From NCBI GenBank assembly GCA_000002435.2, contig CM018792.1: a stretch of 64,000 bases of DNA; one strand, 5' to 3'. The position numbers were made by a program, and so were the translations under genes. This document shows positions 4,974-42,110 of this stretch, piece after piece. Every line of letters begins with the position of its first letter. The stretch's first letter is position 1. Under the pieces are notes generated by a model, which did no database searches, had not been told where the DNA came from, and saw only the letters and a program-made list of their open reading frames with translations. This DNA is from Giardia intestinalis (Eukaryota).

Positions 4974-7900
4974 ATGAGCAACTCGGCAGATGCCGCAGAG
5001 TCGATGCTTGCTCCATCTGCTCTTGGCCTGGGCTATTTAGAGGCGGGGAGCTCTACAAAGCGGTTGGCATCAATAATAGTGGAAACACTTCTATCAGACT
5101 ACTCGGCAGTAATTCTTAACTCCTTTTCACAGCTACGAGACAGTATTCACAACAGGCCTCTCTACATCATGATGGAACCATCTCTTGGCTGTGACCCCAT
5201 GCATGACCATGAGGCTCCAAAGGATGTGTCACCTCTTTTTGGCTCATACATCGACCGTGCGGAATCTCAAATCCTTACTTTGCCCACCTCTATTTTGAAG
5301 CTCAAACTGGAGGAGCAAATAGTCCAGTTACTCAAAGAGCTGTCGAGTGAAAATGCAGATTTGCAAAGACAACTAGACAATGTCAGATCTTTACTAACAG
5401 ATAGCCATGTGCAGGTAAGCAATAAGGACAGCCTCATGTCCTCGATCCTAAAATCGAAGTCAGATGAAAAGGTGCGTCTTCTGAGTGAGATTCAGCTCTT
5501 GCGCGAACAGCTCTATCAGAAGCGTATTCACGGAGGGGTTAACATATACAAGCCTGACTTTGGGCATACAGAAGGAGGACACGGAGACGCAGATGAGCGT
5601 GACGCTCGAGAGTTCTGGAATTTGCGGCTGAAGGACAAAGACGACGAGATTCTTCAGCTCAATAAACAGATTGTATCTCTGAAGGAAGAGGTGTCGGTTC
5701 TCAAGGGGTTCACAAAAGATTCCATGGACGAGGCAGAGAGACATAGACTTGAGGCATTGAGCAAAAGTAAGGCAAGCGTGAGTCTAGAGGACGAGAATGC
5801 TTTGTTGAAGAGGGATCTCGAGGAACTTCAGATGCGGTATCAGACAGATATGAACGCTGCTACAACGTCAATCGAGGCTTTGCGCACAGAGAATACAACC
5901 CTGAGTAAAGCAGCAGAAGAGCAAGAGGCAGACGCAAGCACCATGCGACATAAGATGGAGACCTTAGAGTCAAAGGCTCTGGTACTTGAGGCACAATTGA
6001 CAGAAGCTAAACAGCGGCATATGCAGGATACCGAGGTACTTCGTAGAGAGCTTGAAAGAGCTAACGCTGCAGCTACATCTGCTAAGGATGATTTAAAGAA
6101 GCACGCTATTATGACTGATCGATTGAAGGCGGAACTGGAGATGCTTATGAAAGAGAATGGAGAGAACTCCCTTGTCAGCGGTCTCAAGGATCAGATTGAA
6201 AAACAGCGGAAAGACATCTCGAAATTAGTGAGTGACATTAAAATCTATCGTGGCAAGCTCGCCCATGCCAACAACAAGATAGCAAAACTTACGGGGCGGC
6301 CAGTTCCTCAAAGGAAAGCACTTAATTCGGACGATTCAAACGACTTTACTGACGACGATCTATATGAAACCGAAGGCCATGGTGATACCGATAACCTGTA
6401 TGGTAGATCTACTCAAGATACCACTATAGAAGAAACTATAGAGTGTACATCTACTAGGTCCAGCTTGAGTAGTGCTCAATTAGAGAGGGCAGAAAATTCA
6501 AAGAAATCGGATGTGGACAAAATGGCGGCCTTAATTGGTAAGTATAGAGAGATAGTTTGTTGCTTAGCACGACTCCCAGATGCAAAGTTACCAAAAACAC
6601 TTGCTGGCCTATCTAAATTTCTTTCTAGTCGCATGAAGAAAGCAGATACTGCCAATATGGGTGGGGCGTTCGACCCTGCCAACGATTCTGACTCCGATTC
6701 TCATCCCAGGAAGAAGGAAAGAACAGCTAAGGCAAAGCAAGGAAAGAGTGGTAAAGGTATCAAGGGACCTAAGCTAGGAGGTAATGGAAAATCGGCTAGT
6801 GGGGGTAAGGGAGAGGTAGCGGTTAAGCGTAAAGGTACCGATAAGAATGTGACTCCAGCAAAGGCTTCTGGAAGCAAGAAGGAGCACACTGAAAACAGCG
6901 ACAGTGACTCTTATTATTACAGCTATAGCATAAGCTCAAATGACACCTATCTTCTTGAGGACAAGATAGATGACGACTTCTTTGGAGTAGGTGGCGATCC
7001 AAATGCAATGGTCCGCCGAGGTGACGTTGAGGAATACGTCTCTATGAAAATTCAGGCTGCTCTAGAGAACTTTAGAATGGAGTATGATAATGAGGCCGAG
7101 CTTCAGGCCATGGGGATTGCACATATGACAGCAAAGGCGATACTAGAGAACTATTCCCACAGATCTTGTCAGACATATGTAAGCTACCTCACAGATACAA
7201 TGCGGATACTTACAGACGCGGATATCATTGACGAGAATGATGGTCTATACCTTGATGATGCTGGAAATTGGCGGCGCATTGGCGACGTTGCTGTAAAGAG
7301 TGGCCTGCAACCTAAAGACATAGAGCTAAACCGACGGCGCTTGGATCTGTTTAATCACACGTCTATGACAAATCTTCCGCTGGCGGACCCCAATCATCCA
7401 CTGCACCGCAGAGATGCACAGTTGGCTATGACAGCCGCTGACAAGGTAATGAATCTACAAGCCACTGGAGCGAACTATCGCCTTCACCATAACTTAAAAG
7501 GAGAAGGCTTAACAACAGACCAAATCTTTGATCAACTCTACAACGACACTCAGCGAATGCGCCTTGAGGCCAATACGCGTCGTGAAAAGATGGACTCCAC
7601 CTCATTACAACAGCTAAAGCTACGCGAAACTCCCAGCCCCTACAGAGAAGTTGCTCAGGCAGACCATAAGATTGGTCTCTTTGGCTCTCTAATTGTCAAA
7701 GCATCAGTTGTGCCAGAAAATGCTACATCGCCATCACCTGCCCCTTTAAATGTTCAGCTAGATAAGAAAACTCCTGGTGCGCCATCTGCCGCGGCTGTTC
7801 CTTCAAAGAGCAACACTGCGACGAAATCAGGGGAGAGAGTAATTCAAACAATCAACAATGTGCTTGGTATGAATGTTGCCTCAGTCAAGGTGGATCATCC

Positions 7901-10900
7901 GGAGGAGCCTGCTAAACCCAAGAAGCCAATGCTCGTTCAGCAGCGTTTCGATCCTAGACAACGACGAGGAACCGGCACCAAGGAGGTCCGTAGCCACCAA
8001 TCAGATCGGGTGATCGAGACCTCCAAATCGCAGCAATATGAAGAGGATAAACCCAGATCACTGAGTCCTCTATCTCAGAATAACCTTGATACGCCTATTG
8101 AAAACATGGTCAACATCATATCCTCGGCCCGTTCTTTACATAGCCCGCTCACTGCTTGCAATGATACTCGCTCTGAGCCTCAGCAAGAAACTCCAGATCT
8201 AGGAACTCCTAGGGCATTTCGATTGGTCAATAATTCTGAAGCAGATGGTATTTATGTCCGCATGAGTAACGAGGGCGTCATCAATGGCCAGATAATTGTG
8301 TCTGATGGGTTTGTTACCAATATTAGTTATAAGAATATGTTCGGGGATAACCTTGACCGAGTTATATACTCTCACACGGACAGTCAATCCGGCGGTCAGC
8401 TGACCTCATCTCCAGGGGCTCCATCTCACAACAGCATTGCCATCACAAAGGGTACATGCTTGCCAAATAACATTATTCAATCTCCTGAGCTCAATATAGA
8501 CACCAGAGCTCAGCTTCCTAAATATGACGCTGATCAGGGAGTAAGCGTCCAGCCAACTCTCTTTATTGAAACTGTAGTGGAGGATGGCGATTCTGGAACC
8601 CTACGAACAACCGGGGATGATTCTATTCGGCCAAGCATTGACCTTACTCGTACACCTCTTCACAGACCCCCCTCTGGAGCAGCCACCGGGGCCCAGCGCA
8701 ATAAGTTATCTATAGCCTCAGAGATAGATATGGGGTCCATCTCAGAGATCCAAAAGCTCTCCATATCAGTTCCGTCCACGTTGGAGCATAACGATCTAGC
8801 AGACCAGCTACCGTTACGAGGATCTCTTATCAAGGAGGATCTGGAGCAAATCCATGTTGCAGATGTAACAACGCTTCTAGGCAAAAACGTAGTTGATTTC
8901 CAGCGAGCAGCAATGCTAGATCAGAGTGGACCTGATGTAGTACCGGTCTCAACGCAATTCTCCGAAGACAAAGGAGCGGTGCTTCTTGATGAAAGTCTTC
9001 TTCGCATTCTTTCTCTCTTACCAACAACACCGGCAGAGGACGAATTTCTTAGCCTTCCTAGGGCCAAGAGTTGCTATAAAAAGCAGCGAGAAAAAGACCT
9101 GCTGGCACCGGGTGCCGCTCTTCGGCTTGTCAAGATCACAGTTAAGCCGGGCCATGAGAGACTGATTGAAATAATCACAAAGCCAGACGACACTCCATAC
9201 TTTTATGACCCGAAAACCGAGTATAGGTACTCCGATATACACTCCCTTCAAGAGTCTCTACAGCAGGAGCAGCAAGTGGATTACCACCCGAACACAACTC
9301 AGCCAATAGACAGATCTCAAGCTCGTGAGGACTCCTCTGCGATGCACCCAGAGCTGGACAATTCGACAATGGGGTCAGAAGAGAACTCGAGGGTAAGTCT
9401 CCAATTGGAGCCAGATGGGCCTGAGATATCCATAAAGTCTCTTGCAAACACAGCTGATGAGCAGATACGGCAGTTATTCAAATTGACTGTCGACAAGCAC
9501 GGGCGTCCCAGGAGACTCACTGAGGCAGAACTCTATCTTCTTAGCAAGATTGGGGACTATAAATCCAACAGTACTGCAACCATCCGGCTTCAGCGCGGAA
9601 ATAACATTGGGCAACGTCCAACTATTGCCAATCTTGTTTCCATTAATGAGACATCAAATTTAAAGACACAGGATCTGTCAGAAAACGCTCACCTACGGAA
9701 GGATCCAGTGGCATCAGCTCCCCATTCAAAGACCAGTGTCGAGCTGACACCAGATGAGCTTGTGTCTCTATATTTAAAGAAGACAGAAGAAAAGCAAGCT
9801 GGACACTCAACCAGGGCCGTTGTAGGGCATGGATTACAAAGTAGACCAGTTAAGATTGCTCCTCAGGTAAGCAGTATTCCTGTTACTGCCAGACAATCCC
9901 TAGAAGGACCATCCGATAGCTCTTTCACTGGGAAATATGTGACCGTCGACGGAAAGGTGATAGAGTATACAGAGGAGGATCAATTCGTTACTGAATTGGA
10001 CAGGATTGTTAATTCTATGGTTAGCACGGCTTCTGCCACAAACAAGAAAAACGATGACTTAACCACAGATGATCTTATGGTACTGCAAACTAAGATACGC
10101 GACTCTGCTACTTTAGATTCTAAGCTTGAGAGCAGGATTCAATCTATTAGACATATACAGGAACAACTCACGAAGGGGGTCATTAAAGTAGTTCGTGCAG
10201 ATGACGGATCAAGGCTGTTCATGGACTCTAGGGGCTTTGTTCTCAACGGAGCAATTGTTGAAGATATGCTCAAGGAGGAGCCCGATAAGCTATGCACACA
10301 ATTGGACATACTAGCATCCTTAGCCAGTTCTGAATTACAGTCGCACGGACTGTTAAATGGCATAAAGGTGCGGAATAAGAATGGGACTATAGAGGCAGAT
10401 CTTCTTCTTCCGCGCATGCCAATCCAAACAATTAAGGAGTCAACGTCATCTACTCGTCTTCGATCTGATCATTCTACTGCACAACCCATTATGACAACAG
10501 ACGGCCTCTTTAACAGTTCGTATTATCTAGATCTTTCTACGAATAATTCAAAGCTCCAGACAACCCCTCCTGGGAACAGTCTCGTGTCCATGACTGTTTC
10601 TACCCTCACCGAAGACGGTCACATTGGAGTGCAGATGCCTCAGACACAGATTCCACATAGGGCTAGTACATCAGGCGCACAACCAGGTCAGTTCGTTGCT
10701 CGCAACATGACGCGATCCATAGTCCGCTCACAACTCGGCACTGCATTATCCACAGCAGCAAGTAGCGCACGAGGCAGCCCGGGTCAGATCCTCAAACCAT
10801 TGAGAAGCATAGAAGGGGTAACTACAGACGGCAACCAGCAGCCAATAACTACAGCTGGTCGAACCATCCCTATGCAGAGAGTCTCTGGAGAGTATCGCGA

Positions 10901-11471
10901 CTCTGACGGCCTCCGCTTTGTTAAATCCTCTGCTTCCAGTGCTCTCATCCGTGGCTCTAAGGGCTCCCTCGTCGACGACTCCGAGGCACATGCATATATC
11001 CGTGGCGGAGTAGTATCCCACGGGGTAGCTGAAATACTCTCTTACTCCAAGCAAAACAGCCATTCTCTTCAGCCAGGGGCTGTAGCACGGGAGGTAGGTC
11101 TTCCAGAAATCTCTCCCACTGCAGCGCACGCGCTAGAAGAAGCGATAATATGTCGGGGCATTTCTTTCAAACGATCCACGGAAAAGCCTTCAAGTACGGC
11201 TTCTTACCCGCTACTCAATAGTAATCCTACAGGAAAGCAGTATCAGTACAGCACTACTAACTCGATCAAGCCACATGGTGAGTTTGATTCTGATGGGCTA
11301 GATTCTAAGCTACTGACGTGCTCTATTATAATAGATTCCCCCATTTCCCCGGTAAAGTCGTACCGACAAACATCAGCCGTGGAAGCAAGGAGTCCGTTTG
11401 TTGCTGGTCCAGGAGCGGCCACAGAAAAAACCCAGGGTATTATCGAAGAAGTCTCGGATATCCAGGTGTGA
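4974..11471 (+). CDS. giant coiled-coil protein, paralogue 1 of a 4-member family (2165 aa)
   Basis: N-terminal 'NRPLYIMMEPSLGCDPMHDHEAPKDVSPLF' domain shared with genes at 14401, 17531 and 26553. Heptad-rich coiled coil from ~aa 100 to 450, a 'IYKPDF' motif, then a >1500-aa S/T/P-rich tail. A/T-rich initiator 'CAAAATTCCCAAAAAATG'. Confidence 0.8.
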   Translation: MSNSADAAESMLAPSALGLGYLEAGSSTKRLASIIVETLLSDYSAVILNSFSQLRDSIHNRPLYIMMEPSLGCDPMHDHEAPKDVSPLFGSYIDRAESQILTLPTSILKLKLEEQIVQLLKELSSENADLQRQLDNVRSLLTDSHVQVSNKDSLMSSILKSKSDEKVRLLSEIQLLREQLYQKRIHGGVNIYKPDFGHTEGGHGDADERDAREFWNLRLKDKDDEILQLNKQIVSLKEEVSVLKGFTKDSMDEAERHRLEALSKSKASVSLEDENALLKRDLEELQMRYQTDMNAATTSIEALRTENTTLSKAAEEQEADASTMRHKMETLESKALVLEAQLTEAKQRHMQDTEVLRRELERANAAATSAKDDLKKHAIMTDRLKAELEMLMKENGENSLVSGLKDQIEKQRKDISKLVSDIKIYRGKLAHANNKIAKLTGRPVPQRKALNSDDSNDFTDDDLYETEGHGDTDNLYGRSTQDTTIEETIECTSTRSSLSSAQLERAENSKKSDVDKMAALIGKYREIVCCLARLPDAKLPKTLAGLSKFLSSRMKKADTANMGGAFDPANDSDSDSHPRKKERTAKAKQGKSGKGIKGPKLGGNGKSASGGKGEVAVKRKGTDKNVTPAKASGSKKEHTENSDSDSYYYSYSISSNDTYLLEDKIDDDFFGVGGDPNAMVRRGDVEEYVSMKIQAALENFRMEYDNEAELQAMGIAHMTAKAILENYSHRSCQTYVSYLTDTMRILTDADIIDENDGLYLDDAGNWRRIGDVAVKSGLQPKDIELNRRRLDLFNHTSMTNLPLADPNHPLHRRDAQLAMTAADKVMNLQATGANYRLHHNLKGEGLTTDQIFDQLYNDTQRMRLEANTRREKMDSTSLQQLKLRETPSPYREVAQADHKIGLFGSLIVKASVVPENATSPSPAPLNVQLDKKTPGAPSAAAVPSKSNTATKSGERVIQTINNVLGMNVASVKVDHPEEPAKPKKPMLVQQRFDPRQRRGTGTKEVRSHQSDRVIETSKSQQYEEDKPRSLSPLSQNNLDTPIENMVNIISSARSLHSPLTACNDTRSEPQQETPDLGTPRAFRLVNNSEADGIYVRMSNEGVINGQIIVSDGFVTNISYKNMFGDNLDRVIYSHTDSQSGGQLTSSPGAPSHNSIAITKGTCLPNNIIQSPELNIDTRAQLPKYDADQGVSVQPTLFIETVVEDGDSGTLRTTGDDSIRPSIDLTRTPLHRPPSGAATGAQRNKLSIASEIDMGSISEIQKLSISVPSTLEHNDLADQLPLRGSLIKEDLEQIHVADVTTLLGKNVVDFQRAAMLDQSGPDVVPVSTQFSEDKGAVLLDESLLRILSLLPTTPAEDEFLSLPRAKSCYKKQREKDLLAPGAALRLVKITVKPGHERLIEIITKPDDTPYFYDPKTEYRYSDIHSLQESLQQEQQVDYHPNTTQPIDRSQAREDSSAMHPELDNSTMGSEENSRVSLQLEPDGPEISIKSLANTADEQIRQLFKLTVDKHGRPRRLTEAELYLLSKIGDYKSNSTATIRLQRGNNIGQRPTIANLVSINETSNLKTQDLSENAHLRKDPVASAPHSKTSVELTPDELVSLYLKKTEEKQAGHSTRAVVGHGLQSRPVKIAPQVSSIPVTARQSLEGPSDSSFTGKYVTVDGKVIEYTEEDQFVTELDRIVNSMVSTASATNKKNDDLTTDDLMVLQTKIRDSATLDSKLESRIQSIRHIQEQLTKGVIKVVRADDGSRLFMDSRGFVLNGAIVEDMLKEEPDKLCTQLDILASLASSELQSHGLLNGIKVRNKNGTIEADLLLPRMPIQTIKESTSSTRLRSDHSTAQPIMTTDGLFNSSYYLDLSTNNSKLQTTPPGNSLVSMTVSTLTEDGHIGVQMPQTQIPHRASTSGAQPGQFVARNMTRSIVRSQLGTALSTAASSARGSPGQILKPLRSIEGVTTDGNQQPITTAGRTIPMQRVSGEYRDSDGLRFVKSSASSALIRGSKGSLVDDSEAHAYIRGGVVSHGVAEILSYSKQNSHSLQPGAVAREVGLPEISPTAAHALEEAIICRGISFKRSTEKPSSTASYPLLNSNPTGKQYQYSTTNSIKPHGEFDSDGLDSKLLTCSIIIDSPISPVKSYRQTSAVEARSPFVAGPGAATEKTQGIIEEVSDIQV

Positions 11472-11571
11472 TAGCGACGATCTATCTCTCTTTAGTCAGG
11501 TGCTTGTAAACAGGCGTCTTTTTATCGTGTTTGTCTAACATTATCGTCTATACTTTGCAGATGCAACCCTG

Positions 11572-11586
11572 CCAAAAATTAAAACG
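11572..11586 (+). promoter_or_regulatory. A/T-rich initiator element immediately upstream of the V-ATPase B ATG
   Basis: 'AAAATTAAAACG' abutting the ATG. The same class of motif recurs at 4957-4973, 42089-42106(-), 47892-47905(-), 49478-49487, 56636-56649, 48874-48889 and 60294-60322(-). Confidence 0.5.
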
Positions 11587-13080: not shown

Positions 13081-13867
13081 ATCTTTGATCGCTTTCATTG
13101 CTTGTAGAAGATGCTAATACGAAAAAGCGGATAGGATAAAGATTGCTCGGCCAAGTTGGTTGCTCATCTATGGTCAGCACCGTCAAACCTGCTTGAGAAC
13201 AGAGGTCCTTTATCATATCAAGGCTACGGATTAAATTGATGTCTTCTTTATCCAAGAAGAAACCATCGTTAATGATGCAATTTTCTTTCATGATGATTCT
13301 ACCGGTTGATGGAGTTAGAAGATGATCCTTGGCAAATTTGAGGAACCTCACGACATCGCGGTCCACTAAGTGACCAATCACCCACTGGAGAAACACAACA
13401 TCGTAATTAATTCCGCGAAATTGCTGTTGTAAGGCTTCTATATCCTGCAGCTCCAAGTTGTAACGCGCTCTGATACTATTTCTGGCAAAATTCGTTGTCG
13501 ATGCTTGGACAAACAGCTCACAGCCTTCGATCATGTCAACATGCTGAAAGACGGGCTTCAAGGCATAGTGAGATACACGGCCTATACCTCCTCCGCAGTC
13601 GAGACAGGTGTTCGTTTTGATGGCCTTGTCTGAAGCCAACTGTTTGAGTCTTAGTGTGGTCCACTCAACCTCATCCTTGTGAACATAGGAGAGCCCTCCA
13701 AGCATACCGTCAATGGTGGGCTCCACAAGGGACGAGTACCACGTGGAGCAGGAGCCATACCACGCTGAGGTGCCCATCATGTTGATAATCTGGCGGTACT
13801 CTAGCTCTTCGCGGTCAGAAGTCACACCAATCACGTTCCCAAAAGCATCTAAGGGCTCGTCAGTCAT
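13073..13867 (-). CDS. NTMT1: alpha N-terminal (X-P-K) protein methyltransferase, NTMT1/METTL11A family
   Basis: 'PTIDGMLGG' (NTMT1 'PTVDGMLGG'), SAM motif I 'CLDCGGGIGRVS', 'HVDMIEGCELFVQAS', and 'YDVVFLQWVIGHLVDRDVVRFL' (human '[22 protein letters not shown]'). Its 3' end overlaps the V-ATPase B stop by 8 nt (convergent). Confidence 0.85.
   Translation of the reverse strand: MTDEPLDAFGNVIGVTSDREELEYRQIINMMGTSAWYGSCSTWYSSLVEPTIDGMLGGLSYVHKDEVEWTTLRLKQLASDKAIKTNTCLDCGGGIGRVSHYALKPVFQHVDMIEGCELFVQASTTNFARNSIRARYNLELQDIEALQQQFRGINYDVVFLQWVIGHLVDRDVVRFLKFAKDHLLTPSTGRIIMKENCIINDGFFLDKEDINLIRSLDMIKDLCSQAGLTVLTIDEQPTWPSNLYPIRFFVLASSTSNESDQRFT
13076..13082 (+). terminator. putative Giardia-type polyadenylation signal AGTGAAT overlapping the stop codon of the V-ATPase B gene
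   Basis: 'aagactAAGTGAATc': it matches the AGTRAAY consensus and sits at the stop, as is typical for Giardia. Confidence 0.4.
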
Positions 13868-13916
13868 ACTTTAATTGGAGAGTAAGAAAAACGCCTGGGC
13901 ACTCGTTCACTTACCG

Positions 13917-14411
13917 TTAATACTTGTACTTTTTCCTTTCTTTATAGCTTGATTGAGAGCCAGTAGCTCGAGTGGTTGCCTCTTGCATGTCTGTCAAATG
14001 CATCATGGGCTTTATGACAACTGACCAGAATCCATATGAGATAGACACCGGGATAAGCAAGTCGGCCCAGTAGATCTTGACTGTGATGGGTGATAACGTG
14101 AAGACCAGTAAAACAACGTAGAGTATGTCAAATGCAACATTGATTATTGTTCCAGAAAGCTCCGAGCCGCCATCGATCAGACGCCCCGTAGAATCGTATT
14201 TTTCTCGTGACAGATGCCGAAACATCTGATAGATGACTATCGCAAGACTATAGTGGACCATTGATACGCTAACTGAGGTTGCTGTGGCGTTTTCCCTATA
14301 GATGTACACAAGAAGCAAGTACACAGCAAGAGACCCTAGTAGTGCTACACGCACAGTCGTGAGGATCCTGCTATTCTTTCTCAGAGTCTTCTTGGCAGAG
14401 TCATTGGCCAT
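13917..14411 (-). CDS. small 4-TM membrane protein, hypothetical (164 aa)
   Basis: Four hydrophobic segments ('VALLGSLAVYLLLVYIY', 'VHYSLAIVIYQMF', 'IINVAFDILYVVLLVFTL', 'LIPVSISYGFWSVVI') and a K-rich C-terminus. Start taken at 'MANDS'; it overlaps the upstream gene's stop by 11 nt. Confidence 0.5.
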   Translation of the reverse strand: MANDSAKKTLRKNSRILTTVRVALLGSLAVYLLLVYIYRENATATSVSVSMVHYSLAIVIYQMFRHLSREKYDSTGRLIDGGSELSGTIINVAFDILYVVLLVFTLSPITVKIYWADLLIPVSISYGFWSVVIKPMMHLTDMQEATTRATGSQSSYKERKKYKY

Positions 14412-16788
14412 TTTTAAGAGGTAAGGATTTAACAGGCTTAGACTCAACAACTGCCTCCACTATGCCAGTTGTATTAAATTGTGGAAGTGGCCGCTTACTG
14501 ATCAGCTTAGATGCTGAAGTATTAGATCGTTGTATGTGCTCAATGGTATGAATTGGAGAGCGCGCAGAGAGGAAATTGTTACTTCGCCTCGGTGAAAGCC
14601 TTTCGTTTGGGCTATTTGGTAAGTGCCTAAAACTTTTCCCAGCAGACATGACACCATGGGACTTAGGTGCGCTGGAAGAGCTACGTATGAGAGGACGTCG
14701 AGGTGATGCTGAGGAAAGGAGAGCGCCTGAGGCTGCTCTTCTAGTAGATGGGGTATATGACGAAATAGTCCGTGCAGATGTCTTAGTTGGCCGAACTATT
14801 GAAGGCTCGTAAAGCATGCTGCTGTATTGAACTTTCTCAATGTGAATGTCACTTAAAGTATCATCAGAGTCTTCACAGTTGGGGTTTTCATAGTTGTATT
14901 CGTTATATGGTGTCCTTGCTTGCGAGAGAGCGTAGTTCTCAAAGATATTTTTCTTCAATACCCGGCGAACCTTTTGCATATATAGAATAGGATTGGTTCG
15001 GATTGATTCAGGGTAAAATGAATATGACTCACAGTCAGATATTTCACCAGAACACTGTATAGCTTTTGATTGGCAGGACGTAATGTCTGAGTGCGAACCT
15101 ACCCATCTTTTGGCAAATAGGTTTAGTGCTAAATCAATATTTTGCCACAGTTGCTCCGCTGTGAACAGGCCACCACTTAGTGTTTGAACAGCTTTATCGC
15201 TTACGTCAACTGACTGCCGGGAATGTGGACGTAGGCTGGTGGTAGGATCTTTGCTGACACCGCAACTTGTCATCAGAGGAGTCTTTCCTTCGCTTACAGT
15301 CTCACAAGCCACAGCAAAGGAAGAACTGTCCTCAGACTCGCAGGAAGAGAGTTTCTGATCACAAAGGTCATCCAAGGGCGTAGGAGCAGGCCTCTCAAAC
15401 AAGGTATCTTCCTTTACCGGTGAATGTATTCTCATAGAAAGCTCCCGCATGGTATGTGGTATCAGTGGAGAGAGAAGGGATGCACGGGTTAGAATATTAC
15501 TCGAAGGTGGAGGGTTGCTATGCAGTAAAGTAAACTCCCCAGCACTCCGGCAGTCAGGAACATAAGAGGATGCATCAAGCTGCAACGGAGGTACAGAGGA
15601 CCGTTCAAGAGGTTGCTCAAGGGATTGCCGATCTTCTACACATTGTGGGCTGCTATCAGGTTTGAAGCCCTTACTGGATGATAACGTAGCTAGGCCCATA
15701 TTGCTAGGCTTTATAGATTGTCGCTCAGTTTGCCACTTGCGTAAAATAGGACTAGAGAACTTGAAGATGGGTGGCACACACGATTGCCTTTTAGAATCCA
15801 GGAAACCGTCTCGCTCGTTTGCGCTGTGCTGAAGCTGTATCTCGGTCTCAGGTTTGCTCTCAGGTGACATTTTACCGAGATCTTGTACGCCACGAGGTGT
15901 GCTCATCAGTCCCAGTATCATGCTAGTGCTTCCGATAAAATCTTGGTCGGTGCTACAGGCAACGCTGTCGACGTGCTCGGAGCCAGCTGAAGTGGGATAA
16001 GGCCGGGTTGTGTGAACATCTGATGACTGCCTGGAGAAAGATCGTGTCAGGATACTGCGTGTTCGTGCCTTTGCTTCAGTTAGTTGATTGCTTAGGAGTT
16101 GCATCTTGCTCTTTAGAGCGGCAATGGTTACATTCTTGCTTTCGATTTCTCGCTGGAACTGCTCATTCTCCCTACCTTGTGCTAAAAGGGACGTATCTCT
16201 TAGTAACGTATAGTCAGCATCATAACTCTGAGAGGCTGTGTTCGATCTAGCATACCCACTGATAATATTGTTAAGCTCATGGATCTTCAACTGACTGCGC
16301 TTAGTCGACGTGGCCTTCTCTACTAGGATGGCCTGAAGAATTTCAGTTAGCTCGCCAATTCGGCGTGTCAGCGAGTAAATCTGTCTGCTCATTTTGTCAT
16401 GCTGGAGCTCCAGGTGGTCACGGACCTTAATGTACTCAAGAAGGTGGTCTCTGATCCCATCTTGCAATCGGGCCCGCATGTCTTTCATTCCGCGGTCCAT
16501 GATCATAAGCTCCGCTGTATCGATAGAGGCACTATAAATGGGGTATACATCTTTTGGTGCTTCGTGGTCTGTCTTTGGGTCGCAGGCCAACAGCTGCTCA
16601 AACATGACGTACAGCTTTCTGTTATGGATCTCGGCTCTTAAGTAGGAAAATGCTTGCCCGACGCTACTTGCTAGGGCCGTAGTCAACTGACCACTGATTC
16701 GCTCGGCCAGCATCTGAACAGAACTATCATGTGTCCTTGCACCTGCAGGAGACAAGGCCAGACCAAGCTCAGATGCTGTCAGCGGCAT
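14401..16788 (-). CDS. coiled-coil protein, paralogue 2 (short member, 795 aa) of the 4-member family
   Basis: N-terminal 'NRKLYVMFEQLLACDPKTDHEAPKDVYPIY' domain, then coiled coil, then a S/P-rich tail. ATG confirmed at 16788. Confidence 0.8.
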   Translation of the reverse strand: MPLTASELGLALSPAGARTHDSSVQMLAERISGQLTTALASSVGQAFSYLRAEIHNRKLYVMFEQLLACDPKTDHEAPKDVYPIYSASIDTAELMIMDRGMKDMRARLQDGIRDHLLEYIKVRDHLELQHDKMSRQIYSLTRRIGELTEILQAILVEKATSTKRSQLKIHELNNIISGYARSNTASQSYDADYTLLRDTSLLAQGRENEQFQREIESKNVTIAALKSKMQLLSNQLTEAKARTRSILTRSFSRQSSDVHTTRPYPTSAGSEHVDSVACSTDQDFIGSTSMILGLMSTPRGVQDLGKMSPESKPETEIQLQHSANERDGFLDSKRQSCVPPIFKFSSPILRKWQTERQSIKPSNMGLATLSSSKGFKPDSSPQCVEDRQSLEQPLERSSVPPLQLDASSYVPDCRSAGEFTLLHSNPPPSSNILTRASLLSPLIPHTMRELSMRIHSPVKEDTLFERPAPTPLDDLCDQKLSSCESEDSSSFAVACETVSEGKTPLMTSCGVSKDPTTSLRPHSRQSVDVSDKAVQTLSGGLFTAEQLWQNIDLALNLFAKRWVGSHSDITSCQSKAIQCSGEISDCESYSFYPESIRTNPILYMQKVRRVLKKNIFENYALSQARTPYNEYNYENPNCEDSDDTLSDIHIEKVQYSSMLYEPSIVRPTKTSARTISSYTPSTRRAASGALLSSASPRRPLIRSSSSAPKSHGVMSAGKSFRHLPNSPNERLSPRRSNNFLSARSPIHTIEHIQRSNTSASKLISKRPLPQFNTTGIVEAVVESKPVKSLPLKNGQ

Positions 16789-16895
16789 AGTCTTTTTAGG
16801 GATCCGACATTCATAAAGGCGTCAGGTCATAGAGCAAAGGAGTGATAATTCACAAGTGTATTTGACTGTGAGCAAATGCTTATATAAAGCAAGCA

Positions 16896-17435: not shown

Positions 17436-17530
17436 TTGGGTCTTTATCTTTGCTTCATCTTTGGCATTTATTTTCAATTGCTAATGGCCAGATTTTGAAA
17501 AGCCACAAAGGATTTGCTCGGCTTCCCTGC

Positions 17531-23809: not shown

Positions 23810-23830
23810 ATAGAGGACATACCAGAGACT

Positions 23831-26449: not shown

Positions 26450-26552
26450 TAAGGCGTTGTTGATTGGGCTGGTTGCTTTTGCTTTATTTGCGTTTGTGCA
26501 AAGCCATAATGTATTAAAAGCTTAGGCATTAGAAACAGATTTTGGCAGCTCA

Positions 26553-29500
26553 ATGATGGCAACAGATCCTCTGGGCCTTGACATGGCCGAACTGGGGATT
26601 GTCATTAACCACGGCGACTTGCAAGATGTGCATTCAGGTTGCCTTAAGTATACCCCAGAGGCCTTGGCCCTCGTGAACGAACTGACCGCTAACATTGCCA
26701 CCATCCTCACAGACTCCATCACAGCGGTATTTACTACACTCAAAGATCGCATACACGAACGTCCGCTCTATGTCCTTTTCGAGCCTCAACTAGGTTGTGA
26801 TCCTCTTACGGATCATCAGACCCCAAAAGATGTATATCCAGTATTCAGTGAAGCAATCTCATCGGCAGAAAAAAGGCTGAGCGAGACATCTATTGTAATG
26901 ATAGCGGATGAGCTGCGAGCAAAGATTGTCACCATGTTGAATTTAGAAGTTAGTAAGACCAACGCCCTTAAAGCACAGGCAGAGGATGCCCTTGGAGAGC
27001 TAGCTACTCTGAAAGCTAAGCTACTCATGAAGGACAAGTTCATTCAGCAGATCATGCAGTCCAAATCCGAAGACCATAGCAAGTTCATATCAGAAATAAC
27101 CGTTCTCAGAGAGCAAGCCTTTATGAAGCGGCGCTTTGGAGATAGGTACAAGCCAGATAATATTGACAAAGCAGCAGATGATGGCCAGCAGCAAGGCCTC
27201 GGCGGATCCCTTTTGGGGAGCACAGGAGAGTTCGCTGTAGGCCAAGGAAACCAGGCTAACAAGCTGATTCGTGACCAGCTAGCAGCTACAGTAGCAGAGA
27301 ATAAAGAGCTGAAGCTTAAGCTGGAGGCAACAGGGCTTGCACACAAAAAAGTAGAGGAGCTGGAGGAGGAGTGCACCGCACTAAGGCTCAACATTCAAAA
27401 CTTGGAGTCATCTCACACAGAAACAATAGCCAAACTTGAAAGCAGTCTCAAGGAAAAGAATTTGCTCATATCAACCTATCAGGACAATGAACGGGCACTC
27501 AATACATCTGTTCAAGAGCTTACAAAGCAACTGCGCTCGTTGGAGAAAAGGCGGCCCACTTCTTCAGATATTACTTCTCGTACAGACACAGATTTATTTA
27601 GAGAAAATACTGAGCTAAAATCTAGAGTCTTTGAACTGCAAGAGCAGCTCATGACTAATCAGCTAGAGAAAAAGCAGGACCCTACAGAAGATGCGAGCCT
27701 AGCAGAGACTCTTTCCAATCTACAGAAGGAGCTTCAAGAGAAAACTGCTGAGGCAAGCCTTTATAGGCAAAAGCTAGAAGAGGCTGGCCTTTTGAACGCA
27801 CCGGTTGACGCATTTATCAAGCTCGCTGATCATAATACGGCTGTGGCTGCATTCACCTCTCAGATTGACGAGCTTGAGGCTCAGAACCAGGCTCTCGTAG
27901 AGCTCTCAGAAAAACTTCAACGTCAAGTAGATCAGCTTATAGAAAATGAAGCCGCCGAGATAAATAATGTCCTTGAGGCTAACGAAATCTTACACAAGCA
28001 GAAGCTGAAAAACGCAGTTGAGGCTGCCGTTTGTATCGACAGTTTCAACGAGTCTATTCAGGCAGCCAAGCGAGCTATCACAAACTTTGATGACTTCGGG
28101 TGTCAGGTCCCAGATAAGCGCGCTCGTAAAAGTGCTCTACGATCTGGCGAAGGGGATGACCTGGATGTGCAGGATGATGAGGGCTGTAAAGAAGACGCTG
28201 AAGCATCTCGCATTCGTCGCGCCATTGATGCAGCTAGGAAAATATATGCCAGCCGTCTTCCCGCGATGAACGAGCCTACATTGTCCTATGACGTGAGCAG
28301 TGTTGACGAGGTCTTTAAACAGTTATTCGACACGGCAAAGACAGCCAAGACGCAGCTCATGAAAAAGCATCACGAGACGCTGAAAAATGAAGCGCAAACA
28401 CTGATGAGAAACTTAAACCTTCATGATCGCATTGCCCGTACAATTTCACATTATACTAACTTTGTTGACCAACCAGCTAAGGACCCGTTGAAACTACTGT
28501 CTAAAGAGCAGCTACGCGATGTGCTCTGCGAGAATATAGACGTAGGCCCCTTTGACGACTCGTCTCCTGAACAGGATGAGATGTTAGCTAGACTGCCTGA
28601 TGCATCACATGAGATGCAAGACGAAGCTTCGAATAGAGACTCAGCTGTAAAGGAACCTCATGACTCGCCTCCTGCAAAACCTGATGGTCCCGCTCCTAGA
28701 AGTCGTAAGCGCCGTGCCTCTCCTTCTAAGGTTAGGGGCGGCAGATCTACCCTTTCCACACCAATCTCTTCCACTACAAGACCAGCAACCCGAAAGAGCG
28801 GAACTACACTGAGCGGTACAACAACCTCACGTGCTTCTGAGTTAGAAGAGCTCGACGGCGAAAAGGACTTTTTTCGTGCCTCAGTCCCAGACAGCCCCGT
28901 CAGAGAGACCTTCAGCGTACGAACCCCAGCATCTCGAGGTATAGAGAGCGATAGAGATTCAGACGACCAGGTGGCTTATGCGCTAGCAGACAACGGTAAG
29001 CGTATAGCGCCCATGAAACACGTTCGTGTACCACGTTTGAAAAGTAGTGGACGAGGCCCAAGGCTATTAATTCGACTATTAAAAGACAAACTCACTGGAG
29101 AAATCCGCGATGAACTGGGAAGGCTGGTATCTTCAGAAAACCTATATATGTACGGGTATTGCCTGGACATTAGAGGCGACCTAGTCTACTATGGTGATTG
29201 CAGTGTCAATAAAAAGGCTTCAGATGACCCAGATACCATTGTACGGAGATTTCTGGCCGGTGACGAAGGTGAGTTGCTACTGCCTAACGGACAGCGCATT
29301 TTCCGAGAGGATGCACTGCGCTTTGGATATAAGGGTCCTGCACGTAATGGAACTTACATTTTCATTGGCCAACCTCTTGACCTATATGATCAGGTTATGC
29401 GACTATCACCGGATGGTGTTTCTGCTATGGTGACTAAGATCTTAGGACAAGATATAGAATATGACGATATCATTGCTGACTTTACCTTCAAGCTGGATTT

Positions 29501-32500
29501 AGACGAAGTGACCCAAAAGCCATACGTCTGTATCGACACTGATGCCACCTCTTTACAAGACTCTACACAGGATGCATTCCATGTATTTACGCACGCAAGA
29601 GCAACTGAGTTTCTCCATAGGGTTGATCCAGAAAGCCTGAAGATTCCAGAGGAAGATGCTTTCAAGATCGGCATTTTGCCTGATGCCGGCGGGGTATATC
29701 GTTATGCACGACCAGCGCTCCACCTATCACAAGCAGACGATTTGCTAGTAACGGATCCACAGGGAAATGAAATTAAGGTCGAAGATGCCCTTGAAGCAGG
29801 ATATGCAGGGCCGTTCGGTTCACAACAGGAGTATTACTATTTCTCCCCAGCTCTTCCTGGAGAAACAAGGGCTTGTGAGGTAATTTCCAATGGTTCAAAA
29901 TTACGCATAATCACCAACAATGACGAAAACACTGCTTATGAAGTTGCTGTAGCTGATGCATACAAATATGGATTTCTTCCTGCGCTTAATGGTACATACC
30001 ACTACGCAGGAGATCTGCCATATCTTAGAGAGCTCGATACAGAATCTAACGTTCTATATGACCTCTTGGATAAGCCTGTTAACCGTGAAGACGCAGAACA
30101 ACACGGATACTTGCGTCATAGCGATGGGAAGTACTATTACATAGGCTTATCTAACCTACCTCAGAAACAAAGTCCTCCATCAACCGTACGGCTATCATCT
30201 TCTATCGACATTTGCGACTCTTCGTTTGATAGTCAATTGGAAAATGACGGTATTAACATCGCAAATGCTGACATAACATTGCTATACGATAAGTATATTG
30301 ACGTATTCATAGAAAAGGATACAGGATACGTCGTTGACAATAAGGCTATGCTTAAAGAGTATGGGTACCTGATCGATAATACAAACACTCCTCATTTTGT
30401 AGGGATAAACAATTTGGGAGAGGTTCTTCCACGTGATGCAGATTTGGATGCTATAGACCAGTCGAAAACCATAATCACCGGTTATAATAACAAAATATAT
30501 GTTTATGATCAGAAAAACATTGATACATATTATGAAAATAACGTTGCAATTGTACCTAAGAAGATTGATATTATAAAACTTCAAAAGCGGCTTGAAACCA
30601 TTAATGATCCAAACCAAGTGAGAAAGCTGGCGGAGCATATGCAGCGTTTGGACAAGCGGCAGTTGGAAGCTTCTCAGCCTCCTGCTCGTGACATCAGCTC
30701 TTGTAGCAGTGAAAAGGTGAGCATACTGATTGATGACGGCATTGGAAAAAGCACCATTCTAAACGTTAAAAGTAACGAGCTACAGAATGTTGCATCTAGT
30801 ACCTCACCAAAAGTAGAAGCCACTATCACTCAACGTGAACATAGACAGCCAAAGGATGTAGCTAATGATCTCATTGTAGAGGAACTCGTAAATACACAAG
30901 CGCAACTTCATGACCATTTGCCGGCGTGTGAACTAACTGGAGAAATAAGCAGCAGTGTAGTGCATGTTGAACCAACTGGTCATGCTTCAAGAAATCCGAT
31001 CGATACCCTTGATAATTGTACAATCATCGATAATACTTCTTTAGGAGCTGGGTTGGGCCATGCATCGACAGTACGCAAGGTTACCACTCTCTGCAGCCAT
31101 AACATTGATCGAGAGCTTTTGGGACACCAGGGGGGCTATTTCTACTCTCCTGGTCATGCCGTCTTTAAACGACACGGACCAGGATTAGTTGTTACAACTT
31201 ACGGTTCTGTCGATGACACCTTTGTACATGTGAAAAGCCCAAACTATAGGACTCATATGTTGACTCCGTCCAGAAAGGGCCGCATTGTTATTCAGAACAT
31301 CATTAAGCCGTCACCTAATACCAGTATACGGCCATTGTTCGATCGAGAGGCTGGAATTGTCTTCGATGAGCAAACAAATGAGATTTTGGGCCACGTCAAC
31401 GAAACAACTGGTGACATCGAAGACACCACTGGGCGCACAATTGGACATAGCGAGCTCAGATCTCGAACTATTAAGTATGTTAGCACAGAGAGCTCTCTAA
31501 AGCAGGCGTCAATACATAGGCTGCGCTCGACAACTGTGGCTTCTACTACCACTTCACTACAACGTAGCCGCTCCCACGATCCTCGGCATTCCGTAGAACT
31601 AGGACAAGAGAACTATATCTTTGGTGAATTTGTAGAAACACCCATGCGTGTTGTAAGCACTAAAGCATACATAGCAATGAATACACCCACACAGATGAAG
31701 GATCCAAGCGTTCCCCTGCTTTCTTCAAGCGTAACAGGGCTATCTTCTCGCCGAAATCTTATCGATTCTAAGTCTGGAAGGACAACGCAGGGCCTCACTA
31801 AATCAAGCATGGTGCTGGTAACTCTTCACGATCCTGATGCTCCTCTGGACTTGGATCCACACGCCATTACAGCGTTCCAAGTCAATACGCATACGGAGAC
31901 TGTCCTTCGTGGAGGTTCTGCTCCAGCAAGGGGGTCCTTCGGACTGTCAGATACTGGGTTCAAAGAGGACAGTATTGTCTCTATGCACGATGGGATGTTT
32001 CCTGGTATTGAGGATCGTACCCAGTTGGGGGTGACTCCGACTGAGCTCGTACGAGCCACGTCCCATCGTGCAATTGGACGCAGTCCATCAATAATACCTG
32101 GAATGCATAACCCTGCACCTCCATCGCTTAATACGTTATACAGAGAAGGAAAGACTCTGAATGCTCTGTCTAACGCTTTGCCAGTTACCCCTCAGAAGCC
32201 CCCTGATTCCGCCCTCCATCGTGCCTCTTCAAAACGTGATATGTCTATTGGTTATCCTATATGCCAAAGGTCTGTACGCCGAGCGCAATCAATGCGATAT
32301 ATGACAGGTCACATGCTTCCATCGATGATACTTCCACATGAGCTGCTTCGGCGTCCCTATTACAAGGACGCAACATCTAAATGGATTCCTTACACTCAAG
32401 TCACGCTGGTGCCAGACGATTCAAAGATGCTTTCAGAGTCACACTCTGCTCCTCTTAGCATCTTGCAAAGCCTTGCCTATCGTACACTGCAGCACGGTGT

Positions 32501-33314
32501 CCTGTCTACAAAGCCCCTTCGTCCACATACGACAAACGATGCATCAGAAGCTACCTCCACTACAAGCCGTGTAGCCCTAGCTTCTGATGATGAAGATTTA
32601 ATTGAAGCAGATATAGGGTGTAGCAAGCCACCTCAAGTGCTTCCCTCAATGCGATGCCTAAACAAGTTTGTCGCTATGAAAGACTCAACAACCACGCACA
32701 TAAAGGGTAGTGAAGGTCGGGCTTTGAATCCGCATAACAAAGACACAGGCACAGTATTGAGAGGGGCCAGCAACCCAGTTGTTTCCGAACGAATATCTTA
32801 CAATCTTTCCCAAGAAGCCCGTGCAAAGTCGTCTTGTTTGGCTAAAGAATCTGAATATCAGTTTGTGCAGGTGGGCTCTCTGCCGCCCTCTAGCCTCCCA
32901 GCCACATTTCCACTGGTAACTAGCGCGATGGAAAGCACTGAAGCGCTTTCATCTCTTTGTCAGAAACACGAACGCAGCCCAATGCATGTGCATTCACTTA
33001 CTAAAACTGAAAAACCTAAGGAGACTCCGCTTTGCGACGTTGCTCCACCTTCGCCTGAGACAAAACAGTGTGATAATGTCCACCGGCCTAGAAACCTAGT
33101 TACATCGCGCAGGTTGCTGTCAGCTCAGCTAAAAGGATCTAGTTCTCAACAGGCCCGCCAACCCCGCATAATACAGATCATTCAGAACGATCTAAACACA
33201 TCTGCATCGTCTAGAACACACGGCCTTCAAGCGCACTCCGCCTCAGATGCTGCAAAAAAACTGGAAACAAGTGGCCTTGCTATCAATACCTCTCCTCGCA
33301 GACGTTGCCGGTAA
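26553..33314 (+). CDS. giant coiled-coil protein, paralogue 4 (2253 aa) with internal Y/G-rich repeats
   Basis: 'ERPLYVLFEPQLGCDPLTDHQTPKDVYPVF' domain, ~400 aa of coiled coil, 'DRYKPDN', six 'EDAxxxGYxGP..nGtYyYxG..LP' repeats, and a ~1000-aa S/T-rich tail. Confidence 0.8.
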   Translation: MMATDPLGLDMAELGIVINHGDLQDVHSGCLKYTPEALALVNELTANIATILTDSITAVFTTLKDRIHERPLYVLFEPQLGCDPLTDHQTPKDVYPVFSEAISSAEKRLSETSIVMIADELRAKIVTMLNLEVSKTNALKAQAEDALGELATLKAKLLMKDKFIQQIMQSKSEDHSKFISEITVLREQAFMKRRFGDRYKPDNIDKAADDGQQQGLGGSLLGSTGEFAVGQGNQANKLIRDQLAATVAENKELKLKLEATGLAHKKVEELEEECTALRLNIQNLESSHTETIAKLESSLKEKNLLISTYQDNERALNTSVQELTKQLRSLEKRRPTSSDITSRTDTDLFRENTELKSRVFELQEQLMTNQLEKKQDPTEDASLAETLSNLQKELQEKTAEASLYRQKLEEAGLLNAPVDAFIKLADHNTAVAAFTSQIDELEAQNQALVELSEKLQRQVDQLIENEAAEINNVLEANEILHKQKLKNAVEAAVCIDSFNESIQAAKRAITNFDDFGCQVPDKRARKSALRSGEGDDLDVQDDEGCKEDAEASRIRRAIDAARKIYASRLPAMNEPTLSYDVSSVDEVFKQLFDTAKTAKTQLMKKHHETLKNEAQTLMRNLNLHDRIARTISHYTNFVDQPAKDPLKLLSKEQLRDVLCENIDVGPFDDSSPEQDEMLARLPDASHEMQDEASNRDSAVKEPHDSPPAKPDGPAPRSRKRRASPSKVRGGRSTLSTPISSTTRPATRKSGTTLSGTTTSRASELEELDGEKDFFRASVPDSPVRETFSVRTPASRGIESDRDSDDQVAYALADNGKRIAPMKHVRVPRLKSSGRGPRLLIRLLKDKLTGEIRDELGRLVSSENLYMYGYCLDIRGDLVYYGDCSVNKKASDDPDTIVRRFLAGDEGELLLPNGQRIFREDALRFGYKGPARNGTYIFIGQPLDLYDQVMRLSPDGVSAMVTKILGQDIEYDDIIADFTFKLDLDEVTQKPYVCIDTDATSLQDSTQDAFHVFTHARATEFLHRVDPESLKIPEEDAFKIGILPDAGGVYRYARPALHLSQADDLLVTDPQGNEIKVEDALEAGYAGPFGSQQEYYYFSPALPGETRACEVISNGSKLRIITNNDENTAYEVAVADAYKYGFLPALNGTYHYAGDLPYLRELDTESNVLYDLLDKPVNREDAEQHGYLRHSDGKYYYIGLSNLPQKQSPPSTVRLSSSIDICDSSFDSQLENDGINIANADITLLYDKYIDVFIEKDTGYVVDNKAMLKEYGYLIDNTNTPHFVGINNLGEVLPRDADLDAIDQSKTIITGYNNKIYVYDQKNIDTYYENNVAIVPKKIDIIKLQKRLETINDPNQVRKLAEHMQRLDKRQLEASQPPARDISSCSSEKVSILIDDGIGKSTILNVKSNELQNVASSTSPKVEATITQREHRQPKDVANDLIVEELVNTQAQLHDHLPACELTGEISSSVVHVEPTGHASRNPIDTLDNCTIIDNTSLGAGLGHASTVRKVTTLCSHNIDRELLGHQGGYFYSPGHAVFKRHGPGLVVTTYGSVDDTFVHVKSPNYRTHMLTPSRKGRIVIQNIIKPSPNTSIRPLFDREAGIVFDEQTNEILGHVNETTGDIEDTTGRTIGHSELRSRTIKYVSTESSLKQASIHRLRSTTVASTTTSLQRSRSHDPRHSVELGQENYIFGEFVETPMRVVSTKAYIAMNTPTQMKDPSVPLLSSSVTGLSSRRNLIDSKSGRTTQGLTKSSMVLVTLHDPDAPLDLDPHAITAFQVNTHTETVLRGGSAPARGSFGLSDTGFKEDSIVSMHDGMFPGIEDRTQLGVTPTELVRATSHRAIGRSPSIIPGMHNPAPPSLNTLYREGKTLNALSNALPVTPQKPPDSALHRASSKRDMSIGYPICQRSVRRAQSMRYMTGHMLPSMILPHELLRRPYYKDATSKWIPYTQVTLVPDDSKMLSESHSAPLSILQSLAYRTLQHGVLSTKPLRPHTTNDASEATSTTSRVALASDDEDLIEADIGCSKPPQVLPSMRCLNKFVAMKDSTTTHIKGSEGRALNPHNKDTGTVLRGASNPVVSERISYNLSQEARAKSSCLAKESEYQFVQVGSLPPSSLPATFPLVTSAMESTEALSSLCQKHERSPMHVHSLTKTEKPKETPLCDVAPPSPETKQCDNVHRPRNLVTSRRLLSAQLKGSSSQQARQPRIIQIIQNDLNTSASSRTHGLQAHSASDAAKKLETSGLAINTSPRRRCR
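29280..30430 (+). repeat. six divergent protein-level repeats (~35-40 aa each) inside paralogue 4; weak resemblance to plakin/plectin repeats
   Basis: The six units are 'LLPNGQRIFREDALRFGYKGPARNGTYIFIGQPLD', 'EEDAFKIGILPDAGGVYRYARPALHL', 'VTDPQGNEIKVEDALEAGYAGPFGSQQEYYYFSPALPGE', 'VADAYKYGFLPALNGTYHYAGDLPYL', 'VNREDAEQHGYLRHSDGKYYYIGLSNLP' and 'AMLKEYGYLIDNTNTPHFVGINNLGEVLP'. Confidence 0.5.
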
Positions 33315-42088: not shown

Positions 42089-42110
42089 CTTTTTAAAACG
42101 TTTACTCAGC

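Follow-up and report, generated by a model that had tools for sequence, protein, structure and literature searches.

A stretch of 64,000 nucleotides from contig CM018792.1 of the Giardia intestinalis assembly GCA_000002435.2 (in what follows, the window) contains, between positions 4974 and 33314, four genes designated here A to D. By sequence comparison, the N-terminal module that their products share is a genuine, previously undescribed protein-domain family. All four open reading frames (ORFs) stand in the ORF list at the coordinates given by an initial annotation of this DNA, and the strings that it quoted are present in the four translations. The genes, with the length of their products in amino acids (aa), are the following:

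4974..11471, + strand: gene A, 2165 aa, from the ORF list and its translation; GL50803_12217, annotated as hypothetical protein
14401..16788, - strand: gene B, 795 aa, from the ORF list and its translation; a short member and the fastest-evolving one
17531..23809, + strand: gene C, 2092 aa; orthologues annotated as 'Coiled-coil protein'
26553..33314, + strand: gene D, 2253 aa, from the ORF list and its translation

The product of gene A corresponds to XP_001705681.1 (GL50803_12217 of Giardia intestinalis WB), with 100% identity over 2165 aa. The ORF of gene C opens at a TTG at 17450, and its first ATG is found at 17531.

The initial annotation had proposed that the four proteins begin with a collinear region of about 120 aa. 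That such a region is shared is borne out far beyond chance by BLASTP comparison of the N-termini, with E-values of 2e-12 to 4e-27 calculated for a database size of 3 Mb (A-B 1.4e-14, A-C 1.2e-18, A-D 3.6e-27, B-C 2.3e-12, B-D 1.6e-14 and C-D 1e-19), and even the weakest pair, B-C, lies well below 0.01, the value beyond which the similarity was to be regarded as not significant. The length had been underestimated, as the shared part amounts to about 200 aa in the four proteins and to 300-400 aa in A, C and D; the alignments themselves extend over some 75-130 residues in the pairs with B and over 300-420 residues among A, C and D. The core motif is located in A, B, C and D and reads, in the N-terminal alignment, R-[PK]-L-Y-[VI]-[LM]-[FM]-E-x-x-L-x-C-D-P-x-x-D-H-x-x-[PA]-K-D-V-x-P-[ILV]-[YF]. 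When an 82-column profile of this core is run against the 449 six-frame ORFs of the window, only A-D match, with 120-136 bits, the next ORF reaching 3.8 bits.

The structure predicted for this region by AlphaFold2 (AF2) is a helical hairpin. For the 90-aa head of A, modelled from an alignment of 50 sequences, the mean predicted local distance difference test (pLDDT) score is 94.8, and the model consists of a helix (residues 2-30), an ordered loop with a beta-bridge (31-56) and a second helix (57-89). In the model of aa 1-260 of the same protein (38 sequences, mean pLDDT 87.7), the first helix is placed at 26-59 and the loop at 60-85. A 30-residue amphipathic helix is thus predicted to fold back, via an ordered apex loop of 26 residues, onto the start of helix 2, and in the predicted structure the conserved motif is the connecting segment at the apex of the hairpin. 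The amphipathic helix that had been noticed upstream of the core corresponds to helix 1. The heads of the four proteins are located as follows:

5058..5330, + strand: head of A, aa 29-119, with helix 1, apex loop and start of helix 2; core at aa 61-89 (5154-5240); 121.6 bits
16444..16716, - strand: head of B, aa 25-115; core at aa 57-85 (16534-16620); 135.9 bits
17738..18010, + strand: head of C, aa 70-160; core at aa 102-130 (17834-17920); 119.7 bits
26664..26936, + strand: head of D, aa 38-128; core at aa 70-98 (26760-26846); 132.5 bits

Conservation within the family is highest in the apex loop, which has the consensus R-P/K-L-Y-V-M-F-E-x-x-L-x-C-D/N-P-x-T-D-H-x-x-P-K-x-V-x-P-x-F. The column frequencies among 114 family sequences are 77% for R, 86% for V, 76% for F, 98% for E, 96% for L, 97% for C, 97% for D/N, 75% for T, 86% for P, 92% for K and 94% for the last P; the D-H pair is invariant in independently built alignments, and the Cys is replaced by Thr in two members. 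The signature E-x-x-L-x-C-[DN]-P-x-T-D-H-x-x-P-K-x-V-x-P is intact in all four window proteins. Ahead of the head, a short 'LGL' motif is found in A ('PSALGLGY', 5010-5042), B ('ASELGLAL', 16752-16775) and D ('TDPLGLDM', 26562-26585) and is not found in C; in the AF2 model of A it forms a short low-confidence helix (aa 16-23).

Beyond the loop, the model of A aa 1-260 continues as an unbroken helix from 86 to 186 with pLDDT > 90, which is followed by a low-confidence break (187-204) holding the sequence YKPDF and by a further helix (205-259). Helix 2 therefore runs for about 100 residues. Heptads are present after the first 30 or so: hydrophobic residues recur with an average period of about 3.9 over the initial 30 positions, which pack on helix 1, and of about 3.5 in the rest. 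The break coincides with a second motif, E-I-x-x-L-[RK]-E-Q-L-x-Q-K-x-R-x-G-x-x-[YF]-[KR]-P-D-F, kept throughout the family, Kipferlia included, so that the 'YKPD' motif reported after the head is real and family-wide; in B it is degenerate (YDADY) and stands at the expected spacing. The distance from the D-H pair to the tyrosine of this hinge is 110 aa in 24 of the 52 members that could be scored, again with Kipferlia among them, and ranges from 98 to 115. A G-x-x-[YF]-x-P-D sequence about 110 aa past D-H is accordingly present in A, C and D, and degenerate in B:

5547..5561, + strand: hinge YKPDF of A, aa 192-196, 112 aa past D-H; within the non-helical, low-confidence break at aa 187-204 (AF2)
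16210..16224, - strand: degenerate hinge YDADY of B, aa 189-193, 113 aa past D-H
18221..18235, + strand: hinge YKPDF of C, aa 231-235, 110 aa past D-H
27147..27161, + strand: hinge YKPDN of D, aa 199-203, 110 aa past D-H
5586..6353, + strand: canonical coiled coil of A, approximately aa 205-460, periodicity 3.50; AF2 helix from aa 205

The coiled coil that the initial annotation had placed downstream of the head is supported by a hydrophobic periodicity of 3.50 in A (205-460), C (270-430) and D (240-480), and this canonical coiled coil extends for 160-260 residues after the hinge. Because the spacing between D-H and hinge is fixed, the helix between them is continuous in the model and its periodicity is that of a coiled coil, head and hinge, with the fixed-length stalk between them, would together make up one conserved unit, a module of about 200 aa. 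An arrangement in which the long helix doubles back and brings YKPDF into contact with the head was rejected, since AF2 predicts a single continuous helix at aa 86-186. A stathmin-like, tubulin-binding role for the helix of about 100 residues was likewise set aside, as it has no support in Pfam or in the Protein Data Bank (PDB) and heptad periodicity is found beyond the hairpin. As a separate observation, gene B combines the highest head score of the four (135.9 bits) with a short product, a degenerate hinge and the lack of the third module described below, perhaps a sign that B is diverging or has been subfunctionalised.

The remainder of the proteins is more variable. The description of the tails as low complexity rich in Ser, Thr, Pro and Gln did not hold, given that these four residues amount to 27-29% in A, C and D, compared with 24.8% in the window's remaining ORFs, and reach 35.7% only in B. 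Since the windowed entropy of the tails (3.65-3.67 bits) is close to that of the other window ORFs (3.70 bits) and their hydrophobic content is reduced (25-27% versus 31.5%), the tails are probably disordered in large part, though not of low complexity. No alignment between the window paralogues is obtained by BLASTP over the C-terminal two thirds. Outside the first 265-310 residues or so (about 265 in B), the tail of C is 74% identical to that of the assemblage-B orthologue P0004, the tail of D is 64% identical to that of P0005 (P0008 being also an orthologue) and the tail of B is 48% identical to that of P0003, where P0005 and P0003, both from Logan assemblies, are the closest non-WB homologues in the collection. 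The tails are thus fast-evolving, yet long collinear blocks are shared with G. muris.

A third module of about 128 aa was defined by a hidden Markov model (HMM) iterated from residues 886-1050 of C as the seed. It consists of D-F-G-C-Q-V, an acidic linker and then V-D-D-V-F-x-R-L-Y-x-x-A-x-x-I-R, and is present in C and D and, as a weak partial copy, in A, where a BLASTP comparison of residues 656-871 with P0019 gives E = 4.6e-4. The HMM search finds no copy in gene B. The module also occurs in GL50803_112784 and in most other long members, across paralogue groups, and its distance from the N-terminus varies widely between members. In D, a weak Pfam GAT match, under the family cut-off, falls at aa 583-639. 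Gene D has, in addition, six copies of a repeat of its own, which its orthologues P0005 and P0008 have as well and of which a repeat HMM finds no copy in A, B or C. This repeat has no Pfam match, and no homologue of it came from a word-indexed protein search, which also misses most of the family. These features are located as follows:

20270..20641, + strand: third module of C, aa 914-1037; '..DFWCQV..', acidic linker, '..VKGVFARLYQNAEEIRARL..'; E = 1.7e-48
28002..28421, + strand: third module of D, aa 484-623; '..DDFGCQVPD..', acidic linker, '..VDEVFKQLFDTAKTAKTQL..'; hmmsearch E = 5e-39
7413..7589, + strand: weak partial copy of the third module in A, aa 814-872, 'DQIFDQLYNDTQRMR'; hmmsearch domain E = 1.5e-4
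29100..30152, + strand: repeat of D, aa 850-1200; six copies of about 35 aa, 'D..G..I..EDA...GY.....G.Y.Y.G'; E per copy 3e-11 to 3e-17

The view that the N-terminal domain cannot be placed in any characterised family agrees with the searches carried out. Pfam has no model for it: the four full proteins give sub-threshold coiled-coil noise at E <= 1, and a scan of 50 head domains on their own, at E <= 10, produces no consistent match. PDB sequence searches with profiles built from 4 and from 50 sequences return nothing below E = 0.04, and Foldseek finds no structural match for the model of A aa 1-260 or for that of the head. Relatives were found instead by an exhaustive HMM search of a head profile made from the four sequences against 1.84 billion cluster representatives, with 112 representatives at E <= 1e-3 and 45 at E <= 1e-10. 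In genuine matches, the head starts within the first 135 residues or so and the match lies within the first 220 or so, and many of the proteins have 600-2250 aa; one match, P0108, is a spurious repeat match and was set aside. The word-indexed search with the 4- and 50-sequence profiles returned only a fragment of gene A and two short ENA fragments, although cluster look-ups place the family's proteins in the very collection that it covers, and its negatives do not amount to absence.

Of the 112 representatives, the 25 that were looked up and carry a name are all from G. intestinalis, G. muris, Spironucleus salmonicida, Hexamita inflata or Kipferlia bialata, and none of these 25 falls outside Fornicata. 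As far as HMMER can see, the family would therefore be restricted to this group. The G. intestinalis members come from assemblages A, B and E, and those of G. muris include TNJ30575 and TNJ30573, which are the orthologues of A and C, respectively, as well as TNJ29063 and TNJ28245. At least six members are found in S. salmonicida and many in H. inflata, and the free-living K. bialata contributes GCA62278. Beyond the window, a minimum of three additional paralogue types occur in G. intestinalis, represented by GL50803_112784 (2132 aa, WB), EET01335 (1808 aa, GS) and EFO63047 (2240 aa, P15), and by this count of sequences its genomes carry at least seven; TNJ28245 of G. muris is a further type.

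From the presence of four members within 30 kb, the initial annotation had deduced local duplication. The cluster is real, but any tandem duplication must be ancient and the family is larger than four. In a rough neighbour-joining (NJ) tree of the 235-aa N-terminal region, each window gene groups with its own orthologues and not with its neighbours, and some Hexamitinae sequences are nearer to individual Giardia paralogues. Together with the identity between paralogues, about 27-47% over the aligned N-terminal regions in BLASTP, and with the nearly adjacent accessions of the A and C orthologues in G. muris (TNJ30575 and TNJ30573), this grouping indicates that the duplications would be old, with linkage retained, rather than the product of a recent local amplification. 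Elsewhere, two members from a GC-rich organism, P0048 and P0100, lie on Logan contigs of 22,347 bp each, perhaps one and the same contig, in which case genomic clustering of members may be a recurrent feature.

From the perspective of function, our best guess is that these proteins act as cytoskeletal anchoring scaffolds. The reading that we tentatively favour, at somewhat less than an even chance, is that of a Fornicata-restricted family of rod-shaped scaffolds that dock their N-terminal end on a shared component of the fornicate cytoskeleton. The rods would be parallel coiled-coil dimers, in which the two hairpins would form a cap at the N-terminal tip and show two copies of the conserved loop. 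Together with the hinge, which lies some 15 nm (about 100 residues of helix) away, this loop would dock onto a partner common to all fornicates, and the divergent tails would give each paralogue its own partners or location. The most plausible partner would be the microtubular cytoskeleton of flagella, basal bodies or spindle poles, which is the most economical choice because fornicates have it in common. A weak link in this direction is that family paralogues are annotated as 'spindle pole protein', and seven putative spindle-pole proteins are reported as lysine-methylated, along with other cytoskeletal coiled-coil proteins, in a study that does not give their gene identifiers (PMC7743719).

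As for the ventral disc and the median body, both are Giardia-specific structures and, to our knowledge, Spironucleus, Hexamita and Kipferlia have neither. Since the family occurs in these relatives, the disc and the median body are argued against as its ancestral site, although single Giardia paralogues could have moved there.

Several points weigh against the scaffold reading. The cytoskeletal role is drawn from the shape of the proteins and from uninformative database names, and the parallel dimeric state of the rods is something that we infer. The conserved loop could serve folding or oligomerisation instead of the binding of a partner. The searchable literature contains no localisation, interaction or phenotype data for any member; neither GL50803_12217 nor GL50803_112784, nor their accessions, are mentioned in searchable paper text, and the disc-proteome supplements contain neither. 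The restriction to Fornicata derives from a four-sequence profile and from the names of 25 of 112 representatives, and more distant relatives may exist. Finally, the NJ tree carries no support values.

Among the alternatives, the one that survives best, unlikely as it is, makes the proteins tethers of microtubule-organising centres, with a head that would either bring in gamma-tubulin complexes or fix the rod to a basal body or spindle pole. The layout matches, with an N-terminal conserved element followed by a long coiled coil and a divergent C-terminus, and the head would be the parallel of the N-terminal CM1 element of Spc110, pericentrin and CDK5RAP2. In Pfam, nevertheless, the CM1 (Cnn_1N), PACT and Spc110 domains and a calmodulin-binding C-terminal domain are not found in the four proteins at E <= 1, and a weak MPS2 match in the coiled coil (E = 0.24) is far below the cut-off. 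The several paralogues named 'spindle pole protein, putative' speak for this explanation, but similarity between coiled coils is most probably all that such names go back to. One study reports that a putative spindle pole gene, for which it gives no identifier, is up-regulated in G2 (PMC6526219), and nothing links this gene to the family.

Distinctly unlikely is a role as adaptors between motors and cargo, comparable to that of the dynein and kinesin adaptors BICD, Hook, Spindly and TRAK, which are built on a coiled coil. A motor complex would then be touched at two sites a set distance apart, by the loop and by YKPDF, and cargo would be bound by the tails. An adaptor would fit the rigid helix of conserved length that lies between the two conserved elements, as well as the long coiled coil that precedes a variable C-terminus, and the L-Y-V-M-F-E of the loop superficially resembles the L-F-x-E Spindly motif. 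In the model, however, this segment is extended within the ordered loop (a single beta-bridge according to DSSP) and not a helical peptide. Pfam shows no HOOK, BicD or other adaptor domain; in particular, HOOK and HOOK_N have no match in the four proteins (E <= 1) or in the 50 heads (E <= 10), and the Hook family has a calponin-homology-like N-terminal domain, in contrast to the two-helix hairpin predicted here. Kinesin motor and kinesin-associated domains have no Pfam match in the four proteins, and the PDB matches to KIF3B and to the kinesin heavy-chain coiled coil (E = 0.08-0.6) concern the coiled-coil part only. The two families considered in the initial annotation as possible sources of the domain, Hook and kinesin-associated, thus have no match in the Pfam scans. 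Eight or more paralogues with tails of at least 1500 aa would also be unusual for adaptors, and the searchable literature gave no interaction data.

Alternatively, the head could have no external partner and act as a self-assembly cap that sets the register of the coiled coil or joins rods end to end, possibly through a metal bound by the Cys and His residues of two loops, which we consider very unlikely. Filaments or networks would be the outcome. The conserved residues do occupy the apex loop, where the helical hairpin reaches its outermost point, and include typical metal ligands within 12 residues (C at 97%, the invariant D-H and E at 98%). Against this, two members have Thr in place of the Cys, there is no CxxC motif, the loop is modelled confidently without a ligand and the conserved hinge at a fixed distance is left unexplained. 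A comparable apex is known from the Rad50 zinc hook, which shares with the Giardia head a helical hairpin whose conserved, Cys-containing tip closes off the distal end of a coiled coil. In Rad50, the tip bears a CxxC that coordinates Zn between two chains and caps an antiparallel coiled coil of great length, whereas the Giardia protein has a short hairpin on a probably parallel stalk and a single Cys followed by D-P-x-T-D-H, so that the candidate ligands are C...D-H; Rad50_zn_hook has no Pfam match in the four proteins or the 50 heads.

More speculatively, the head, helix and hinge could be a molecular ruler of fixed length on the microtubule arrays of fornicates, or else an end-to-end joint between rods bridged by a metal through Cys and His, an idea that has long odds against it. 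As a ruler, the helix of about 100 residues (about 15 nm) would keep two conserved points of contact apart; with the head added, it would come to approximately two tubulin dimers of 8 nm, and the module would read or set a 16-nm periodicity. If the ruler or the metal bridge were true, diplomonads would have a lineage-specific way to build their elaborate microtubular cytoskeleton, one that model eukaryotes lack.

An identity as SMC-like chromosome segregation proteins, suggested by the name 'Chromosome segregation protein SMC' of some assemblage entries in GenBank, has practically no chance of being right and is excluded by the absence from Pfam results of SMC_N, the SMC hinge and the ABC ATPase head in the four proteins at E <= 1, as the N-terminus is a predicted helical hairpin of 90 aa and not a nucleotide-binding head, and the C-termini are unrelated to each other. 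Overall, the family members carry the database names 'hypothetical', 'coiled-coil protein', 'spindle pole protein, putative' and 'chromosome segregation protein SMC', and, judged by detectable domains, the names 'SMC' and 'spindle pole protein' are unsupported.

Returning to the anchoring scaffold, the family appears to be a variation on a familiar theme, the long coiled-coil scaffold that carries a targeting element at one end, and not a system of a new type. Hook, BICD, Spindly, Spc110 and pericentrin likewise have long coiled coils, short conserved N-terminal elements at set spacing and variable C-terminal targeting regions, but their defining domains or motifs are not detected in A-D by Pfam and there is no structural match. 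Subunits of the kinetochore MIND/Mis12 complex (PDB 5t59 and 5wwl), which have helical-hairpin heads, are among the closest known systems. Within Giardia, the SF-assemblin domain (SF-assemblin / beta-giardin) has no Pfam match in the four proteins. The head-stalk proteins of Giardia (Protein 21.1, GASP-180 and HPSR2; Elmendorf et al. 2005, as cited in PMC3243723) are, like A-D, lineage-expanded and presumed to be cytoskeletal, and they too join an N-terminal head to a coiled-coil stalk. Their head is made of ankyrin repeats, in contrast to the 90-aa hairpin of A-D, in which ankyrin repeats have no Pfam match; the same library detects them in neighbouring genes at E = 1e-27 to 1e-149.

Several such head-stalk genes adjoin the A-D cluster at 35.8-56.6 kb, where a run of seven Protein 21.1-type ankyrin genes (35843-56581) forms a second paralogue cluster next to the first. 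Three of them (40871-42160, 49479-51737 and 52049-56581) end in a C3HC4 RING finger, and a fourth (38471-40828) has a coiled coil. Between genes A and B lie the genes for the V-ATPase B subunit (GL50803_12216; PMC3483818) and for the N-terminal methyltransferase NTM1 (GL_12215; PMC7743719). Apart from the seven ankyrin-repeat genes, the remainder of the window includes a kinase, a HAD hydrolase, a Na/H exchanger and a WD40 protein. Two ORFs inside or beside the cluster, 3158-4825 (+ strand, 555 aa) and 23831-26449 (- strand, 872 aa), have neither a Pfam match nor the head. Between 33400 and 35800, the GC content rises up to 0.565 and overlapping ORFs of 120-290 aa without Pfam or Rfam match occupy both strands; only 33719-34552 (- strand) is protein-like ('IDWKKIARAL..RIYHWYRETH'), possibly Myb/SANT-like. 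Rfam and tandem-repeat scans of the whole window gave no matches.

The cytoskeleton of Giardia, with its ventral disc, median body, funis and eight differently routed axonemes, is built largely from lineage-specific proteins. Giant coiled-coil proteins annotated as 'hypothetical' are usually ignored, and here four neighbouring genes, a further three or more G. intestinalis paralogue types and several dozen proteins of Spironucleus, Hexamita and Kipferlia are brought together as one family. The module is confidently predicted, compact and experimentally tractable, and the residues to mutate are the E, C, D-H and K-x-V-x-P of the loop and the Y-K-P-D of the hinge. The head would offer a handle for pull-downs and localisation and is possibly a parasite-specific target. 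As the family would predate the origin of the ventral disc, it may point to a cytoskeletal component common to all fornicates.

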